Source: Eledone cirrhosa (Eukaryota). Taken from it: a DNA stretch of 64,000 bases. Made by a program: the position numbers and the translations under genes. The stretch is from positions 24,800,001 to 24,864,000 of the forward strand of contig OZ024759.1 of NCBI GenBank assembly GCA_964016885.1. The letters run 5' to 3'. This document shows, piece after piece, positions 12,870 through 63,190 of this stretch (the first letter of the stretch is position 1; every line of letters starts with the position of its first letter). The notes under the pieces are model-generated. The model had not been told where the DNA came from. It searched no databases and worked only from the letters and a program-made list of their open reading frames with translations.

Positions 12870-14825
12870 GGAAGTATCTCGTACTTCTTACAGTTGAGAA
12901 ACAAAAGACGTCCGTAGAGGAAGTATCTAGTTCTTCTTACAGTTGAGAAACAAAAGATGTCCGTAGAGGAAGTATCTAGTACTTCTTACAGTTGAGAAAC
13001 AAAAGATGTCTGTAGAGGAAGTATCTCGTACTTCTTACAGTTGAGAAACAAAAGATGTCTGTAGAGGAAGTATCTAGTTCTTCTTACAGTTAAGAAACAA
13101 AAGATGTCTGTAGAGGAAGTATCTAGTTCTTCTTACAGTTGAGAAACAAAAGATGTCTGTAGAGGAAGTATCTCGTACTTCTTACAGTTGAGAAACAAAA
13201 GATGTCCGTAGAGGAAGTATCTAGTTCTTCTTACAGTTGAGAAACAAAAGACGTCTGTAGAGGAAGTATCTAGTTCTTCTTACAGTTGAGAAACAAAAGA
13301 CGTCCGTAGAGGAAGTATCTAGTTCTTCTTACAGTTGAGAAACAAAAGATGTCTGTAGAGGAAGTATCTAGTTCTTCTTACAGTTGAGAAACAAAAGATG
13401 TCCGAAGAGGAAGTATCTAGTACTTCTTACAGTTGAGAAACAAAAGATGTCCGTAGAGGAAGTATCTAGTACTTCTTACAGTTGAGAAACAAAAGATGTC
13501 TGTAGAGGAAGTATCTAGTTCTTCTTACAGTTGAGAAACAAAAGACGTCTGTAGAGGAAGTATCTAGTTCTTCTTACAGTTGAGAAACAAAAGATGTCCG
13601 TAGAGGAAGTATCTAGTTCTTCTTACAGTTGAGAAACAAAAGATGTCTGTAGAGGAAGTATCTAGTTCTTCTTACAGTTGAGAAACAAAAGACGTCTGTA
13701 GAGGAAGTATCTAGTTCTTCTTACAGTTGAGAAACAAGACGTCTGTAGAGGAAGTATCTAGTACTTCTTACAGTTGAGAAACAAAAGACGTCTGTAGAGG
13801 AAGTATCTAGTTCTTCTTACAGTTGAGAAACAAAAGACGTCTGTAGAGGAAGTATCTAGTTCTTCTTACAGTTGAGAAACAAAAGACGTCTGTAGAGGAA
13901 GTATCTAGTTCTTCTTACAGTTGAGAAACAAAAGATGTCCGTAGAGGAAGTATCTAGTACTTCTTACAGTTGAGAAACAAAAGATGTCCGTAGAGGAAGT
14001 ATCTAGTACTTCTTACAGTTGAGAAACAAAAGACGTCTGTAGAGGAAGTATCTAGTTCTTCTTACAGTTGAGAAACAAAAGACGTCTGTAGAGGAAGTAT
14101 CTAGTTCTTCTTACAGTTGAGAAACAAAAGATGTCCATAGAGGAAGTATCTAGTACTTCTTACAGTTGAGAAACAAAAGATGTCCGTAGAGGAAGTATCT
14201 AGTACTTCTTACAGTTGAGAAACAAAAGATGTCTGTAGAGGAAGTATCTCGTACTTCTTACAGTTGAGAAACAAAAGATGTCCGTAGAGGAAGTATCTAG
14301 TTCTTCTTACAGTTGAGAAACAAAAGACGTCTGTAGAGGAAGTATCTAGTTCTTCTTACAGTTGAGAAACAAAAGATGTCTGTAGAGGAAGTATCTAGTT
14401 CTTCTTACAGTTGAGAAACAAAAGACGTCTGTAGAGGAAGTATCTAGTTCTTCTTACAGTTGAGAAACAAAAGATGTCCGTAGAGGAAGTATCTAGTACT
14501 TCTTACAGTTGAGAAACAAAAGATGTCCGTAGAGGAAGTATCTAGTACTTCTTACAGTTGAGAAACAAAAGATGTCTGTAGAGGAAGTATCTCGTACTTC
14601 TTACAGTTGAGAAACAAAAGATGTCCGTAGAGGAAGTATCTAGTTCTTCTTACAGTTGAGAAACAAAAGACGTCTGTAGAGGAAGTATCTAGTTCTTCTT
14701 ACAGTTGAGAAACAAAAGATGTCTGTAGAGGAAGTATCTAGTTCTTCTTACAGTTGAGAAACAAAAGACGTCTGTAGAGGAAGTATCTAGTTCTTCTTAC
14801 AGTTGAGAAACAAAAGACGTCCGTA
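12870..14825. repeat. 49-bp minisatellite, ~40 copies, intronic
   Basis: Unit agaggaagtatctagttcttcttacagttgagaaacaaaagatgtctgt with few variant positions and no spacers. Confidence 0.95.
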
Positions 14826-16544: not shown

Positions 16545-17960
16545 CACCACTTTACAGAGTGTACTGGGTGCGTTTTACCATGACATCAACAGCATCACTT
16601 CATAGAGTGTGCTGGGAGTGATTTATTGTAGTACCAGCACTATCACTAACAGTGTACTGGGTGTGTTTTATCTTAGTACCAGTACTACCACTTAACAGAG
16701 TGTACTGTGTGTGTTTTATCATAGTACCAGTACTACCACTTAACAGAGTGTACTGGGTGTGTTTTATCATAGTACCAACACTACCACTTAACAGAGTGTA
16801 CTGTGTGTGTTTTATCATAGTACCAGTACTACCACTTAACAGAGTGTACTGTGTGTGTTTTATCATAGTACCAGTACTACCACTTAACAGAGTGTACTGT
16901 GTGTGTTTTATCATAGTACCAGTACTACCACTTAACAGAGTGTACTGTGTGTGTTTTATCATAGTACCAGTACTACCACTTAACAGAGTGTACTGTGTGT
17001 GTTTTATCATAGTACCAGTACTACCACTTAACAGAGTGTACTGGGTGTGTTTTATCATAGTACCAACACTACCACTTAACAGAGTGTACTGTGTGAGTTT
17101 TATCATAGTACCAACACTACCACTTAACAGAGTGTACTGGGTGTGTTTTATCATAGTACTAGTACTACCACTTAACAGAGTGTACTGGGTGTGTTTTATC
17201 ATAGTACCAACACTACCACTTAACAGAGTGTACTGGGTGTGTTTTATCATAGTACTAGTACTACCACTTAACAGAGTGTACTGTGTGTGTTTTATCATAG
17301 TACCAGTACTACCACTTAACAGAGTGTACTGTGTGAGTTTTATCATAGTACCAGTACTACCACTTAACAGAGTGTACTGTGTGTGTTTTATCATAGTACC
17401 AGTACTACCACTTAACAGAGTGTACTGTGTGTGTTTTATCATAGTACCAGTACTACCACTTAACAGAGTGTACTGTGTGTGTTTTATCATAGTACCAGTA
17501 CTACCACTTAACAGAGTGTACTGTGTGTGTTTTATCATAGTACCAGTACTACCACTTAACAGAGTGTACTGGGTGTGTTTTATCATAGTACCAACACTAC
17601 CACTTAACAGAGTGTACTGGGTGTGTTTTATCATAGTACCAACACTACCACTTAACAGAGTGTACTGTGTGAGTTTTATCATAGTACCAACACTACCACT
17701 TAACAGAGTGTACTGGGTGTGTTTTATCATAGTACCAGTACTACCATTTAACAGAGTGTACTGGGTGTGTTTTATCATAGTACTAGTACTACCACTTAAC
17801 AGAGTGTACTGGGTGTGTTTTATCATAGTACCAACACTACCACTTAACAGAGTGTACTGGGTGTGTTTTATCATAGTACTAGTACTACCACTTTACAGGG
17901 TGTACTGGGTGTGTTTATCATAGTTTATCATACTACCAGTACTATCACTTTACAGAGTGT
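16545..17960. repeat. 51-bp minisatellite, ~26-27 copies, intronic
   Basis: Unit actaccacttaacagagtgtactg(g/t)gtgtgttttatcatagtacca(gt/ac); produces spurious 17-aa-repeat ORFs on both strands. Confidence 0.95.
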
Positions 17961-35682: not shown

Positions 35683-40620
<4,938 letters not shown>

Positions 40621-40629
40621 ATATAGACA

Positions 40630-48310: not shown

Positions 48311-49939
48311 AATTACACCCGGTAAAGTGGAAGTGACACAACAAAAACACCCAGCCCAACCTGTGAAGGGGTTGCAACAAAAGTGCCAGTTCACATTGCG
48401 AAGTGGTTGTTTTGGTGTCATGACAAGCAGCACACAGTCCACACTGTAAATGTGGTTGGTGTTAGGAAGGGCATCCAGCCATAGCTGGTTTCTACACCAG
48501 GGTGCCCTTACCATAGTAATTCTTTGTAATTTTAGAATTTCACTAAAATTCATAATAGAAATATATTTACTCCGAATTACTTACCTTCACCAATGTTGTT
48601 TATATAGATATACACTTGCAATTCCTCATTATTGTAGGAATTTGTGATGTATTGTTACACCTTACATTACCATAAATATACATTAATCAGTTTCCCATAG
48701 CTGCTGTTCTATATGTTTTACTGTGTCTCCATCATGACATTTCAGCGAGCGTTAGAAATGTTTAATATTTAATTTAATTTGGTTCCTATTCAGCTGTGCT
48801 ATAACTCTGTGCCCTTCATGACCTGGTCAACCAACTTGTACAGCTGGTCCCTCTCTTGGGTCAATATGTGACAAACTTTCTTCTTCTCATTCAGTAATCT
48901 TTCATAATGGCACTTCCATGCTACCTTCTTTTCAGCGTCATTGATATCATAATTTTTCAGGAACTCCTATTGCTCCTCTATTCGCCCTTCCTTGCTGTTG
49001 AAGGCGTCGATCAACATACTTCTAAATTTGTTACTATTTCATGGGTCTTTTAACTTCATACTCGTCTCCTCTAGGTTGGCTTCTATTGTCGGGTTCTTCT
49101 AGCTAACTACTGTATATGTATGTATATATATACTTATTGGTTTCCACCTGTCTATCTGGCTTGACCCATTGAAAATATGTTTAAACATTGCTCCAGTCCT
49201 GGTAGAATCAGTGCCCTTTAATCCTTCCTGTCCAGAATGTTAGCTCTATGGAACTCCCTGACAATATCATAACCTCAAATGTAGACTTTTAAAACATTTC
49301 CAGCTGTGACCATCCTGTGTTTATATGAGTATCTAAGACTATATCGTCATAAGTATTCTTATTTGGTTTAGAATGTGTGAGAGCCCAAGTATTTGGTGGC
49401 AAATTGAAAGAGTCGATAGAATGGTTTGCGGTATTTGTTTCGGCTCAATGAGTTCAACTTTGCATTTCATCCATTTGAGTTCGATAAAAAAAAAAGGTAC
49501 CAGTCTAGTACTGGGCACAATTCTTCCTCTCTATCCTATCCTACTCTGGAAGAAATCTGATGTATACTTCTTCCTGTGTAGTTAGCAGCCGAAAGTGTTC
49601 TTTTAAAAGAAAAAAACTTTATTTCATGTTTCTCCAGTAAACTCAATAGTTAGAGAGTTAATCCTATCCATGGATAGGGAGAGTCTGGTACTCAGTTTTC
49701 ATATTTTTATTTCCAGAAACAAGTATATTTACTTACATATTAATTGTATATATGTAAAAAAATACTAGTAGTTTCAAAATTAATATATATATATATAGAG
49801 AGAGAGAAACGGAATGAGAGAAAGGTAACACAGAATACATTTTGAGGCGTGTTATCTCACCTTCTTTCCGTTTCTATGATTTTTTTTTTAAATAAATAAA
49901 ATTTTATCTATAAGTATGACTAATTTACTTAGTAAAATT

Positions 49940-50081
49940 GTGGCGATGCACGTAGCGGTTCGGACTTCGTCGCCTACCTAGGTATGGCGTGACACATTCT
50001 ATGTGTCCGAAGATCGAATCGTTGCGAGGGCATGCGGCCTCGGCAGCCAGGACTATTTGAAGGCGCGAGCAATCGTTTTTT
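49940..50081 (+). pseudogene. Deleted mirror copy of the structured RNA-like segment
   Basis: Same sequence as 56739-56920(-) but missing 10 nt at the 5' end and ~30 nt in the 3' hairpin; retains TCCGA, which pairs with TCGGA. Confidence 0.4.
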
Positions 50082-52151
50082 ATTAGAATTATTTCCCCTT
50101 TATGGAACTCTTCTGTTACTTTTTTTTTTTATTGATTTCCAGGTTTTAAAAAAGATCATCTTGGATATTACGTTCTTTTAAAGAGGTATGTAATGTTTTC
50201 TTTGTATACAATATAACTCTCTACACACACCACATCATTATGGACATTTTATTCGTAGAAACTAAACCTCTTTATACATATATTTTCTTTATTGACATAA
50301 TTCGATTTAGACCTTTCCTTTTTAGAGACATACACATTCTTCACTAGACACATACCTTCTCAATATACAGCTACATTTTTATTATCTTCTCTATTTCTCT
50401 TGTTATCAATAAGAACATAGGGAGCTGGAGTTGTGAAGTGTGTGGTCGTCTACTGCTCTCTACATCTGGGTACATCAATACTAGGGGTTGCATAGGGAAA
50501 CGGCAATCATTTGCAAAGATTAAGCAATCAATATATATGTATACGCATTCATATATGGAAGTGTGCATGCATGTATATATATGTGTGTCTTTCGATATAG
50601 ATAAGTATATATGAATATACTGGCAGAGTCACACTTTACTATCCCAAGTATCAAGTACTCTTGAATAATGGTATATATATATATACACACACACACACAA
50701 AACAAAGTATAACAAAGGAAATCCTGTAGTTACCCCCTATTTGTATACATATATATATATATATATATATCATAACAAGTTATCGTTATAGGTGATCCAG
50801 TTAGAGGTTGTGAGTACTCCGTATTGTGGATAGTTTTAGTGTATGGTGTTGTTGGACACAACAAGAGGTTTCCTTAGTTAGGTAGCGAGTTCGCGAGAAT
50901 TCCCATGCAGGTTATTCTTGGAGTAATAATAGTGAAAGAGTGATGAATGACATGGTCGGCTGTACAAAAAGGATTTATTTATAGTATTAACAATTGTTTC
51001 ATTGATCAGGTGAGTCAAAAGGTCGCTAATCACTCGAAGTTGCCTCAGTCGACCTTAAATACAGTGTTTACCTCTGATCAGAGGTAAACTGTATTTAAGG
51101 TCGAGTGATTAGCAGCCTTTAGACTCACCTGGTCAATGAAACTTTTGATAATACTAGAAATAAAATCTTTTTGTACAGCCGACCATGTTATTCTTCAATC
51201 TTACACATATATATCAGGGTAAAGACCCTCACGATTGACCATGGGATTTTCATCTAGAAGTTCCCCTCCGAGACCGGGCAAGGTTGTTTGTGGAAGACCA
51301 GCTGTCTTCCCTCTCTACGCCACTGATGTTGTCCAACTCATTTCGACAGACTGATCTGGAGAAACGTGAGACAACGCTAGTAAATCTTTATTTTATATTG
51401 ATGAGTTTCATTTAAACATTTTCTGTTTATTTCCCTCCATAATGTCAGCAATAATTAACCAATAGTTTTGTTTAGCTGCTGCCCCACCTCCACGTTATGT
51501 TGTATTTCCAATGTAATGCCACCTCACATATTTCTCGGTCATATCAAATAAAATTTAGCGTATTTCTATATTATTTAAGTTGGCAAATAAGATAACATCT
51601 CTGTCTGACGACCGATCCAGACGTATATTATTATTGTCTATGATCCAGAAATCTTTGGTAATGGAGTAGTTATATTTTGTGTTGTTCACTTTCTAATATA
51701 TATATATATACGAGAAAACTCATCGCTATATACCCCCCACCCCACAGACATATATATATATACACACATACACACACACAGACACTTATATATATACACA
51801 CACACAGACATATATATATACGAGAAAACTCATCGCTATATACCCCCCACCCCACAGACATATATATATACGAGAAAACTCATTGCTATATACACACACT
51901 CACACACACATCATCATCATCATTTTACGTCCGCTTTTCCCTGCTTGCAAGGGTGGGACGTGTCTTATTCAGCACAGCATCTCTCCACTTGTCACGCTCC
52001 GTCGTCATCTCCACCGTGAGCTTCAGCGATCTGAGGTCTGATCTCACCACCTCCACACAGACACACACACACAGGCACTTATATATACACACACACACAT
52101 ATATATATATACGAGAAAACTCATCGCTATATATACACACACACACACACG

Positions 52152-52209
<58 letters not shown>

Positions 52210-52564
52210 GACGCACACTTATATATATATATACAGTTGGTAAATAATATACTTCCTTCTTATCTTCGTGTTGGAGAACTTTCTCTTTGTCAACATGTCC
52301 CAGTCAGTCGTTCGAGTGTCATACTAGATGTGCAGTCGTGCTTTACAATCATGAGTTCGATTCTCACGTGTAGCAACGTTCTGAAGGACTTGTGCTTGAT
52401 TCTGATAGTTACTTTACCATGGCAGAATCTCCTTTGGTCTTGCTATATTCTGGTTATTAATATTAACCAGAATCTTTTGAGAACTGTCGTCTCTGGCCAG
52501 AGTGAATATTTCACCCGTCTACATAACATAGAACCATTTACATTCTTAGTTTCTTTCTTTTTTT

Positions 52565-52600
<36 letters not shown>

Positions 52601-53170
52601 AATATACATGTTTAGTTTAATATTCTTTTAATTGATAATGTATGTAAATGACTTTCATTCCTTTTTACAGATGTCCAGCCATTAAGGTCATATGCTGTGT
52701 TATTTGCCGTAACAAGTGGGAATGTCGTAGTTTCTTTTAATAAATATACGAGAAAACTCATCGCTATACTCACACACACATCTTTTAATAAAGAAAGTTT
52801 ACATATTATATACGAATTGTATTCAGTTTATTTTGATAAAAATGAATAAAGAAAGTTTAGATCTTATATACGAATTGTGTTCTGTTTATTTTGACAAAAA
52901 TGAATAAAGAAATCAAGAGTCTAGAAGAAACCGAGTAAGTGTTTACGTAAGTGGTTACGAAGTTTCTAAATAAAGAAACTAAGAGTTAGATAAAGTTTCA
53001 TGTAAGAAACTGAGAATGAACAAGTTTCTAAATAAAGAAACTAAGAGGTAGATAAAGTTTCTTGAAAGAAACTGAGAATAATGAAGTTTCTAAATAAAGA
53101 AACTAAGAATGTATTTGAAATTATCGAAAAAAAAAAATCTATGTAATGAGGCTCCATTTTTTTTTTTATT

Positions 53171-53628
53171 AAAGGGAGGTAACTCTGTAATATTTTGAGC
53201 GAATTACCTCCCTTTGAAACACCTTCGTCACCGTCGTTACCACCGTCGGCACCTTCGTAACCGTCGTCACCATTACCGCCGCCACCTGGTGGCGGAGGAA
53301 AAGATTCCGACGAAGACGAAGGTGCACCGCCGTCTTCGTCGGTATCTTTACCGCCGCCACCTGGTGGCGGAGGAAAAGATTCCGACGAAGACGAAGGTGC
53401 ACCGCCGTCTTCGTCGGTATCTTTACCGCCGCCACCTGGTGGCGGAGGAAAAGATACCGACGAAGACGGCGGTGCACCTTCGTCTTCGTCGGAATCTTTT
53501 CCTCCGCCACCAGGTGGCGGCGGTAATGGTGACGACGGTTACGAAGGTGCCGACGGTGGTAACGACGGTGACGAAGGTGTTTCAAAGGGAGGTAATTCGC
53601 TCAAAATATTACAGAGTTACCTCCCTTT
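53171..53628. repeat. GC-rich nested-palindrome core
   Basis: 75-bp unit built from two inverted ~37-bp halves; axes at 53287, 53324.5, 53362, 53399.5, 53437, 53474.5 and 53512; flanking hairpins aaagggaggtaa...ttacctcccttt at 53171-53215 and 53584-53628. Confidence 0.95.
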
Positions 53629-54569
53629 AATAAAAAAAAAAAATGGAGCCTCATTACATAGATTTTTTTTTTTCGATAATTTCAAATACATTCTTAGTTT
53701 CTTTATTTAGAAACTTCATTATTCTCAGTTTCTTTCAAGAAACTTTATCTACCTCTTAGTTTCTTTATTTAGAAACTTGTTCATTCTCAGTTTCTTACAT
53801 GAAACTTTATCTAACTCTTAGTTTCTTTATTTAGAAACTTCGTAACCACTTACGTAAACACTTACTCGGTTTCTTCTAGACTCTTGATTTCTTTATTCAT
53901 TTTTGTCAAAATAAACAGAACACAATTCGTATATAAGATCTAAACTTTCTTTATTCATTTTTATCAAAATAAACTGAATACAATTCGTATATAATATGTA
54001 AACTTTCTTTATTAAAAGATGTGTGTGTGAGTATAGCGATGAGTTTTCTCGTATATTTATTAAAAGAAACTACGACATTCCCATTTGTTACGGCAAATAA
54101 CACAGCATATGACCTTAATGGCTGGACATCTGTAAAAAGGAATGAAAGTCATTTACATACATTATCAATAAAAAGAATATTAAACTAAACATGTATATTA
54201 AGTGTGTGTGTGTGTGTGTGTGTCCAAAAAAAGAAAGAAACTAAGAATGTAAATGGTTCTATGTTATGAAGACGGGTGAAATATTCACTCTGGCCAGAGA
54301 CGACAGTTCTCAAAAGATTCTGGTTAATATTAATAACCAGAATATAGCAAGACCAAAGGAGATTCTGCCATGGTAAAGTAACTTTCAGAATCAAGCACAA
54401 GTCCTTCAGAAGGTTGCTACACATGAGAATCGAACTCATGATTGCACATCTAGTATGACACTCGAACGACTGACTGGGACATGTTGACAAAGAGAAAGTT
54501 CTCCAACACGAAGATAAGAAGGGAAGTAGAAGTATATTATTTACCAACATATATATGTGTGTGTGTGTC

Positions 54570-54635
<66 letters not shown>

Positions 54636-54942
54636 CGTGTGTGTGTGTGTGTGTGTGTATATATAGCGATGAGTTTTCTCGTATATATATATATGTGTGT
54701 GTGTGTGTCTGTGTGGAGGTGGTGAGATCAGACCTCAGATCGCTGAAGCTCACGGTGGAGATGACGACGGAACGTGACAAGTGGAGAGATGCTGTGCTGA
54801 ATAAGACACGTCCCACCCTTGAAAGCAGGGAAAAACGGACGTAAAATGATGATGATGATGTGTGTGTGAGTGTGTGTATATAGCAATGTGTTTTCTCGTA
54901 TATATATATGTCTGTGTGTGTGTGTATATATATATATATGTC

Positions 54943-54981
<39 letters not shown>

Positions 54982-56738
54982 GTCTGTGGGGTGGGGGGTA
55001 TATAGCGATGAGTTTTCTCGTATATATATATAAGTGTCTGTGTGTGTGTATGTGTGTATATATATATATATATGTCTGTGGGGTGGGGGGTATATAGCGA
55101 TGAGTTTTCTCGTATATATATATATATATTAGAAAGTGAACAACACAAAATATAACTACTCCATTACCAAAGATTTCTGGATCATAGACAATAATAATAT
55201 ACGTCTGGATCGGTCGTCAGACAGAGATGTTATCTTATTTGCCAACTTAAATAATATAGAAATACGCTAAATTTTATTTGATATGACCGAGAAATATGTG
55301 AGGTGGCATTACATTGGAAATACAACATAACGTGGAGGTGGGGCAGCAGCTAAACAAAACTATTGGTTAATTATTGCTGACATTATGGAGGGAAATAAAC
55401 AGAAAATGTTTAAATGAAACTCATCAATATAAAATAAAGATTTACTAGCGTTGTCTCACGTTTCTCCAGATCAGTCTGTCGAAATGAGTTGGACAACATC
55501 AGTGGCGTAGAGAGGGAAGACAGCTGGTCTTCCACAAACAACCTTGCCCGGTCTCGGAGGGGAACTTCTAGATGAAAATCCCATGGTCAATCGTGAGGGT
55601 CTTTACGCTTATATATATGTGTAAGATTGAAGAATAACATGGTCGGCTGTACAAAAAGATTTTATTTCTAGTATTATCAAAAGTTTCATTGACCAGGTGA
55701 GTCAATGCTGCTAATCACTCGACCTTAAATACAGTTTACCTCTGATCAGAGGTAAACACTGTATTTAAGGTCGACTGAGGCAACTTCGAGTGATTAGCGA
55801 CCTTTTGACTCACCTGATCAATGAAACAATTGTTAATACTATAAATAAATCCTTTTTGTACAGCCGACCATGTCATTCATCACTCTTTCACTATTATTAC
55901 TCCAAGAATAACCTGCATGGGAATTCTCGCGAACTCGCTACCTAACTAAGGAAACCTCTTGTTGTGTCCAACAACACCATACACTAAAACTATCCACAAT
56001 ACGGAGTACTCACAACCTCTAACTGGATCACCTATAACGATAACTTGTTATGATATATATATATATATATATGTATACAAATAGGGGGTAACTACAGGAT
56101 TTCCTTTGTTATACTTTGTTTTGTGTGTGTGTGTGTATATATATATATACCATTATTCAAGAGTACTTGATACTTGGGATAGTAAAGTGTGACTCTGCCA
56201 GTATATTCATATATACTTATCTATATCGAAAGACACACATATATATACATGCATGCACACTTCCATATATGAATGCGTATACATATATAGTGATTGCTTA
56301 ATCTTTGCAAATGATTGCCGTTTCCCTATGCAACCCCTAGTATTGATGTACCCAGATGTAGAGAGCAGTAGACGACCACACACTTCACAACTCCAGCTCC
56401 CTATGTTCTTATTGATAACAAGAGAAATAGAGAAGATAATAAAAATGTAGCTGTATATTGAGAAGGTATGTGTCTAGTGAAGAATGTGTATGTCTCTAAA
56501 AAGGAAAGGTCTAAATCGAATTATGTCAATAAAGAAAATATATGTATAAAGAGGTTTAGTTTCTACGAATAAAATGTCCATATTGATATGGTGTGTGTAG
56601 AGAGTTATATTGTATACAAAGAAAACATTACATACCTCTTTAAAAGAACGTAATATCCAAGATGATCTTTTTCAAAGAACCGGAAGTAAAACGAAAAAAA
56701 GCAACAGAAGAGTTCCATAAAGGGGAAATAATTCTAAT

Positions 56739-56920
56739 AAAAAACGATTGCTCGCTCTCTCCAGGAGTCAGGCCAGCATATAACCAGCCTTCAAATAGTC
56801 CTGACCGCCGAGGCCGCGTGCCCTCGCAACGATTCGATCTTCCGACACATAGAATGTGTCACGCCATACCTAAGTAGGCGACGAAGTCCGAACCGCTACG
56901 TGCATCGCCACGCGAAGCCA
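56739..56920 (-). ncRNA. Candidate structured Pol III RNA or tRNA-Arg(TCG)-like pseudogene
   Basis: CpG-rich segment ending in T6; acceptor-like stem CTTCGCG/TGCGAGG, TCGGA-CT-TCG anticodon arm start, and several hairpins. Confidence 0.4.
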
Positions 56921-57201
56921 CAATTTTACTAAGTAAATTAGTCATACTTATAGATAAAAATTTTTTTTAATTTTTTTAATTATAGAAATGCAAAGAAAGC
57001 GAGATAACACGCCTCAAAATATATTCTGTGTTACCTTACTCTCATTCCGTTTCTCTATATATATATTAATTCTGAGACTACTAGTATTTTGTACATATAT
57101 ACAATTAATATGTAAGTAAATATCCATGGATAGGATTAGCTCTCTAACTATTGGGTGTACTGGAGCAATATGAGATAAAGTTTTTTTCTTTTAAAAGAAC
57201 A

Positions 57202-62609: not shown

Positions 62610-63190
62610 TGATGTAGCACTGGTGCCACAATAAATTACAGCCAGTACACTCCGCAAAGTGGTAGTGTTGGTGACATGATATAACATAGCCAGTACTCTG
62701 TAAAGTGGTAGCATTGGTGACATGATATAACATAGCCAGTACTCTGTAAAGTGGTAGCATTGGTGACATGATATAACACACCATGAAAGGTGGTGTTACT
62801 GGTGACATGATAACACACCCAGTACACTCTGTAAAGTGGTAGCATTGGTGCCACAATACAACATAACCAGTACACTCTGTAAAGTGGTAGTGTTGATGAC
62901 ATGATATAACACACACTGTAAGGTGGTAGTACTGGTGACATGATAACACATGTAAGGTGGTAATACTGGTGTCACAATAAAACACAGTAGTACAGTGGTT
63001 GGCATTAGAAAGAACATCCATCTAGAAAACCAAGCCAAAAGTGGAGCAAGGTGCAGTCTCTTAACCAGTGTAACTTCAGTACCATGACAACTTGCCAAAC
63101 TGCAGACACCATGGCAACGTGTCTAACCTCAGTACCATGACAATCTGTCTAACCTCAGACACATGAAAAAGATGTTAAATGGTGATGATG
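62610..63190 (+). repeat. SINE remnant with tandemly amplified internal domain
   Basis: Repeated ccagtacactctgtaaagtggtag...ggtgacatgatataac (reverse complement related to the 51-bp unit), followed by tggttggcattagaaagaacatccatc and a (TGA)n tail. Confidence 0.65.

Follow-up and report, generated by a model that had tools for sequence, protein, structure and literature searches.

A nested GC-rich hairpin ladder at the centres of a palindrome family carried mainly by one chromosome of Eledone cirrhosa

The 64,000-nucleotide window analysed here (positions 24800001-24864000 of contig OZ024759.1, hereafter C20, in the 3.0-Gb genome of Eledone cirrhosa) contains a GC-rich hairpin ladder, 358 bp long, that recurs in 17 copies genome-wide (all 17 scored candidates of our search were such cores), 16 of them on C20, spread from 9.17 to 35.24 Mb, with the remaining one on C19. 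Every copy is the centre of a palindrome. We consider it reasonably probable that this core is the fragile point of a palindrome family, where repair from the opposite arm would keep the arms mirror-identical, invert the centre and occasionally copy a block elsewhere on the chromosome, much as core duplicons do. Palindromes of kilobase size and nearly without spacer are expected to vanish quickly, and here 17 persist with one common centre. A single assembly, on which the whole picture of the family rests, displays arm homogenisation, centre inversion, change of unit number and arm swapping, together with natural controls in the form of core-less pairs and one non-converting pair. If our interpretation is correct, the family would represent a compact invertebrate driver of chromosome-restricted duplication, similar to a core duplicon but with a 0.3-kb sequence instead of a gene as its constant part. 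On present evidence, it is a new combination within known palindrome and core-duplicon behaviour and not an undescribed hairpin-replicating element. We found no account of such a family in the literature on cephalopod palindromes and segmental duplications that we covered, which comprised few subscription journals.

The core (53221..53578, assigned to neither strand) consists of an outer arm A, the series P(QP)x3 and the mirrored arm A'. The series is a tandem repeat with a period of 75 bp (53273..53520, likewise unstranded; 3.3 copies, 94% matches), in which P axes at 53287, 53362, 53437 and 53512 alternate at 37.5-bp steps with Q axes at 53324/5, 53399/400 and 53474/5. These four P and three Q axes confirm the seven axes of symmetry that a previous sequence-only reading had recognised in this GC- and CpG-rich island. 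That reading also correctly distinguished two flip versions of the Q palindrome, at 53324 and 53399, from a flop version at 53474 (these are the axes; the first letter of the 26-nt motif is at 53312 and 53387 for flip and at 53462 for flop), as well as three ACCTGGT motifs, centred at 53287, 53362 and 53437, from an ACCAGGT centred at 53512. Positions 53220-53579 have 61% GC and 49 CpG, against 26% GC in the flank, and all mirror mismatches of this core lie at most 50 nt from the axis. Folded as DNA, the segment 53171-53628 reaches -304 kcal/mol (z = -44), a value equalled by none of 100 shuffles, and when the whole 64 kb was scanned for 30-bp arms with at least 25 pairs and GC above 0.3, five of the six matches fell in the core. 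Each side carries, as had also been noted, a further hairpin with a perfect 12-bp stem, at 53171..53215 on the forward strand and, as its mirror copy, at 53584..53628 on the reverse strand; this side hairpin belongs to the arm unit described below and is found in core-less copies too. The ladder is unlikely to be a consensus artefact, because 17 loci show it in 75-bp steps with variants of their own and because contigs of run X1, perhaps the assembly's own sample, cover all bins of the core's left half; the unit numbers given for each locus are those of the assembly. The letters of the core probably derive from a degenerate GNN trinucleotide tract that underwent more than one fold-back. One possible type of source is seen at C8:48961967-48964135, where a degenerate GC-rich array of 9-bp repeats, 2.2 kb long, resembles the outer arm of the core at two mismatches. 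A site at 37.19 Mb of C20, considered as a source gene, was ruled out, being itself a degenerate trinucleotide tract.

Across the genome, both the outer-arm pattern with 0-1 mismatches and the exact pattern of the 75-bp unit match at core loci only. All family members share the architecture A-P-(Q-P)n-A', with n=3 in nine loci, n=2 in seven and n=1 in one. Mirrored blocks reach 2.6-4.5 kb or more in 13 of the 17 loci and only 0.6-1.3 kb in the remaining ones, at 29.46, 32.72 and 12.79 Mb and on C19. The innermost 0.45-1.3 kb of the arm is common to all loci, and the outer arms fall into subfamilies. The expectation that the core would be multi-copy and surrounded by different arm DNA was thus borne out; variation in unit number and flip/flop state, also anticipated, holds between the loci of the assembly (one to three units, and two isomers at 35.228 and 35.238 Mb). 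Divergence between loci amounts to 2.0% in the outer GC arm versus 9.0% in the adjacent AT arm, and within loci to 1.1% and 2.7%, respectively. One core variant tracks chromosome position, being present in all five cores beyond 29 Mb, though their arms belong to two clades. Of the former proposal of a palindrome-seeding cis element, the association with palindromes stands, because the core is multi-copy, all 17 copies are centres of inverted duplications and the ladder is unlikely to be artefactual; breakage at the core, or seeding by it, would be a further step.

The palindrome of the window (49596..57201, unstranded, axis at 53399/53400) is formed by two tail-to-tail copies of an arm unit round the core, and measures about 7.6 kb, with arms of 3.8 kb that are 91.7% identical including gaps and differ by 83 substitutions. 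The arm unit has a conserved order: a CpG-rich block, a splice donor, an acceptor, 58-bp and 31/62-bp repeats, and the side hairpin. In the left arm, read on the forward strand, this corresponds to a promoter-like CpG-rich block with a probable first exon (49940..50185, donor AG|GTATGT at 50185/50186), a probable exon (52671..52740, end approximate) whose frame is not conserved behind a conserved acceptor AG at 52669-52670, and AT-rich, AATAAA-rich tandem repeats of 58 bp and 31/62 bp (52787..53110). The mirror copies on the reverse strand of the right arm lie at 56636..56890 (outer end approximate), 54060..54129 (end approximate) and 53690..54013. Both arms also carry a 290-bp self-inverted MITE-like insert (50926-51214 and 55611-55897). 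A 24-nt marker of the arm unit occurs at 96 places on 14 contigs, mostly C13, C15, C20 and C21 (control 0), and the unit is present without the core on 12 other contigs. Of 70 rows compared at the acceptor, 3 proved unrelated and were left out; the AG is retained in 62 of the other 67, all exon-like copies, and the donor AG|GTATGT in 28 of 35 hits. No reading frame is conserved among the exon copies. Among the matches listed for run X4, loose ends before 52669 are seen in four contigs, and another contig starts at 52669 with 0 differences; a contig of run X1 passes unbroken across this position. The loose letters of X4 fit best the 50185 donor (15/20, the next best being 11, among 47 AGGT sites), with a consensus agreement of 0.57. 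The X4 break, in a run whose type is not on record, together with the conserved signals suggests splicing. The arm unit is therefore described here as what it probably is, a spliced non-coding transcript that reads toward the core from both sides, and each palindrome probably comprises two such convergent non-coding transcription units. RAD runs X5 and X6 cover the arm and not the core, and have no bearing on the latter. Two coding candidates in the arm were rejected: a Cys-rich, knottin-like peptide exon, with cysteines and frame not kept, internal stops and no Pfam match, and an exon candidate beside it, with frameshifting indels and an unconserved donor.

Where arm units are paired convergently on C13 and C15, the centre is not the core but a small hairpin of another kind or an array of 30-bp repeats, and the arms are not mirror-identical. 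The C13 pairs (L103:4988-5084, L058 and L104) share a small hairpin of their own at the centre, the second such centre specific to one chromosome, and an arm-unit end on C15 (L101:4977-5120) has three copies of the side hairpin in alternating orientation, a nested fold-back of the same type made of other letters. Around the exon, arm identity is 92-100% in 15 of the 16 core loci and 77-84%, over short matches, in the core-less C13 pairs (n=3), a contrast that involves three pairs of one chromosome and that age may account for.

Several observations document how the copies change. The flank blocks common to different loci extend over 9-19 kb per side, often in opposite orientation, and since these shared blocks end at different places, the family has spread by segmental duplication and not by insertion of a bounded element. 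We compared the four arms of duplicated loci in six pairs, counting the informative sites that group by locus. The arms were re-homogenised after duplication in four pairs, with locus-private variants on both arms: 10/11 sites group by locus for 21.52 and 22.49 Mb, 17/20 for 16.94 and 21.52 Mb, 38/42 for 9.17 and 9.59 Mb, and 15/27 for 12.05 and 9.59 Mb, where 11 of the other 12 sites lie beyond 1160 nt. The two remaining pairs show no homogenisation after duplication (0/35 for 12.79 Mb and C19, 2/91 for 35.228 and 35.238 Mb). In a tree of 34 proximal arms, left pairs with right in most loci, and in all 13 cores without indels the mirror mismatches are restricted to a central tract with a radius of 6-86 nt. 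The cores at 35.228 and 35.238 Mb have 0 differences when compared in opposite orientation and 9 when compared in the same orientation; as these exact reverse complements are embedded in flanks that are direct duplicates (98.6% over 6 kb), the centre of one must have been inverted, with inversion ends 18 to 985 nt from the axis. At 32.72 Mb, the right arm agrees with its own left arm at 31/34 sites within 336 nt of the core, and beyond 336-355 nt with the 32.44 Mb type at 54/58 sites, a switch that a single ectopic crossover fits as well as a conversion tract anchored at the core. This switch and the left flank of the C19 copy, diverging at about 680 nt, are the two candidates for a rearrangement breakpoint close to the core, counted in one genome and against no null model.

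A fragile core could connect these observations. Palindromes whose arms are long and alike and whose spacers are short are known to extrude hairpins or cruciforms that get cut or stall replication forks, and short inverted repeats beside a break to give rise to palindromic duplications (PMC7999016). By analogy, the core would extrude as hairpins or a cruciform and then be cut or stall forks. Repair of the break from the other arm would restore symmetry when it proceeds without crossover and would exchange flip and flop when it proceeds with one; the proposed use of the opposite arm as template would explain why private variants are mirrored. Slippage or unequal exchange between the self-complementary 75-bp units might change their number, and ectopic repair between loci might move or swap blocks and thus generate dispersed copies. 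In mammals, according to PMC1803023, long palindromes usually lose their centres by deletion, and none of the 17 cores has lost its centre in this way. Passive instability would not predict the 2.0% versus 9.0% divergence, which would be expected if the core were under selection or had recently swept from locus to locus. The conservation of the core and the absence of any lost centre are thus left unexplained by fragility; selection on a hairpin RNA or on bound DNA, or a recent spread of the core, would fit both.

A stronger version of this idea, which we regard as unlikely, would make the ladder an element in cis that is dedicated to palindromes and selected for this role: it would initiate and police them, undergo deliberate cutting or priming, rewrite one arm from the other, pass between loci of a non-coding gene family independently of the arms and so convert the copies of that family on one chromosome into maintained long hairpin-RNA loci; this is hinted at by the 2% divergence of the core versus 9% of the arms, the variant that tracks position and the non-mirror pairs of C13 and C15. 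Slightly less doubtful, but still unlikely, is selection of the palindromes as hairpin-RNA loci, whereby convergent or read-through transcripts would form dsRNA or pri-miRNA-like stems to be diced or edited, and arm conversion would preserve pairing. Repeated imperfect stems within a non-coding transcript are typical of Drosophila hairpin-RNA loci and pri-miRNA clusters, and the core family, with its probably spliced transcript, is similar, with the difference that small RNAs and read-through of the core are hypothetical here. A single unit is predicted to fold into an imperfect stem of about 37 bp closed by a small loop (z -9.5 to -11.4), the core is far better conserved than the arms, the splice signals are kept (62/67 acceptors, 28/35 donors) and X4 shows its splice-like break at 52669, with loose letters fitting the 50185 donor at 15/20. 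Nevertheless, the type of that run is not on record and its loose ends agree at only 0.57, its depth is zero over 53132-53420 (where strong hairpins may drop out), the 25 Rfam matches are weak and all far below gathering scores, and the AATAAA-rich repeats between exon and core could end the transcript first. Five core words of 10-11 letters were absent from four supplementary files of an octopus microRNA study (PMC9699675), files that may omit the sequence tables, and the window has no tRNA genes. A role as a cis-regulatory or chromosome-structural element of C20 (a CpG island with GNN arrays as putative C2H2 zinc-finger sites, working as insulator, terminator or pairing site) appears quite improbable. 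The conserved sequence of the core, its spread over 26 Mb of one chromosome, its period-3 G-rich pattern and the C2H2 zinc-finger genes of the genome would agree with it, but the spacing of the cores is uneven, from 10 kb to 4.6 Mb with none in the first 9 Mb, and C20 is probably not the Z chromosome, because Amnionless, the one marker used, maps to C28. A dosage-compensation site on C20 as Z was discarded for the same reason; Amnionless is Z-linked in two Octopus species according to a preprint (10.1101/2024.12.09.627507). Its exons lie at C28:56.35-56.39 Mb, making C28 the candidate Z if the octopus linkage holds.

The sequence-only reading had also proposed that the core may be the resolution site of a hairpin-replicating mobile element, likening it to a rolling-hairpin or concatemer junction. 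We have weighed this idea in the form of an undescribed rolling-hairpin element, mobilised in trans, that has its terminus or is resolved at the core and whose integrated tail-to-tail dimers would be the palindromes. Imperfect flip/flop palindromes with branched folding are hallmarks of parvovirus hairpin termini and concatemer junctions, and the core family resembles them in both respects, unlike them having no Rep/NS1 or capsid gene, arms made of a host repeat and no fixed genome length. Exact flip/flop isomers, a ladder of 1-3 units, the strong conservation of the core and a genome in which 29 NS1-like places and 3704 Helitron candidates could supply Rep speak for such an element. They are outweighed by the remaining evidence, and we judge it very unlikely: tblastn with two NS1-like and four Helitron-locus frames gave 0 matches in the 594 kb around the cores, so that the larger Rep-encoding copies once envisaged did not appear there; the core has no DNA likeness to those NS1-like and Helitron loci; its ends are not fixed and flanks of 9-19 kb per side travel with it; a single chromosome carries 16 of the 17 copies; and the arms are a host repeat family also found without the core on 12 other contigs. 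Viral origin was dismissed, matches to 31 viral contigs being only 17-24 nt long, and a viral mechanism is unnecessary for flip/flop because any exchange between palindrome arms inverts the centre. None of the 29 NS1-like places is on C20, the palindrome of the window has no long non-repeat frame, and neither fixed termini nor target duplication nor a conserved reading frame were found for the core family. Foldback transposons such as FB and Galileo have long, inverted, repetitive arms, fixed termini with a target-site duplication and a variable centre. Long, internally repetitive inverted arms are present here too, but this candidate was rejected because the outer ends are unfixed, varying by subfamily with homology running past them, and the centre is the constant part. 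For a non-autonomous Helitron or Helentron, a Rep-helicase nearby or fixed termini with a subterminal hairpin would be expected; the arm unit does end in a hairpin, but the protein comparison over the 594 kb gave no match, and neither its 5' nor its 3' boundary was found to be fixed. The termini of Kolobok/T2-MITEs, AGGRR next to TTAA (PMC6004289), recall TTAA-AGGGA at 53169-53177, mirrored at 53622-53630, where the mirror makes the second TTAA uninformative. This candidate was likewise rejected, as two other repeats contain the motif in their interior, TTAA is found at 0 of 23 sampled sites and all 17 cores lie within the same arm unit and not at unrelated sites. Least credible of all, and in our view highly improbable, is the core as a coding exon, whether for a Pro/Gly/acidic/Ser repeat that can be read from either strand or for a protamine-like sequence rich in Arg and His. 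In the former frame the two strands have their third codon positions in common, indels are mostly multiples of 3 and 17 of 40 variants are synonymous with no stops, versus 28% expected (p = 0.03 one-sided, with three frames tested and most variants double-counted by the mirror; 83 of 84 units, one frameshifted unit being left out). Against this, there is no start codon, an in-frame stop lies just upstream, the 10.50 Mb core has a 1-bp deletion, no homolog was found among 75 candidates and no match in Pfam or the Atlas, and the Arg/His frame has only 7 of 40 synonymous variants.

Returning to the core as a probable fragile point, the behaviour of the family can be likened to that of sex-chromosome palindromes, with their arm-to-arm conversion and centre inversion. 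In the GOLGA core duplicons of human chromosome 15 (PMC6436712), varied duplication blocks are likewise built round a core that stays constant. The E. cirrhosa family is similar in that its copies are dispersed on one chromosome and arranged as palindromes, its blocks vary while the core does not, exchanges may take place at the core or close to it, and the unit inside is probably transcribed. By contrast, the constant part is here a hairpin ladder of 0.2-0.36 kb at the exact axis and there a 14-kb protein-coding gene, and the blocks are here 20-30 kb long. With the convergent paralog-pair inverted repeats of Caenorhabditis, as described in PMC1803023, the family shares tail-to-tail paralogs, arm homogenisation and centre inversion; in the nematodes, however, structure outlasts sequence, whereas here the centre is the most conserved sequence, there is almost no spacer, and 17 loci on what is probably an autosome have a common centre. 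Human PATRRs (PMC7999016) are also a family of short-spacer palindromes that exchange at their centres, but the present family differs by its GC-rich nested centre, kilobase arms and intrachromosomal spread.

Other sequences met during this work are worth recording. The terminal motif of the side hairpin has 3731 matches in the genome (control 6) and occurs in other families, namely one with inverted arms of up to 1.1 kb (97%) and the motif inside (L118:780-4040, L119, L132), and a tRNA-like SINE (L120-L134, L098:4965-5038, L100:4918-5114) that on C4 and C27 is folded back into palindromes of 74-197 bp. The 29 NS1-like matches, at C12:9072757-9082621 and 25 other places, include several in open frames of 440-567 codons and four within 10 kb on C12. 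At C20:3.5-5.2 Mb, fourteen same-strand Helitron matches spaced by about 100-210 kb suggest a giant tandem array, and similar runs exist on C27 (13.7-15.5 Mb), C19 and C16. Also encountered were microsatellites of TA and CA, remnants of LINEs and C2H2 zinc-finger frames in tandem. The window itself includes 4.9 kb of (TA)n in which the interrupting G letters are strand-biased (35684-40625), a 49-bp minisatellite in 40 copies (12870-14825) and a 48-bp minisatellite in 29 copies (16546-17924) with an inverted relative at 62614-62920.
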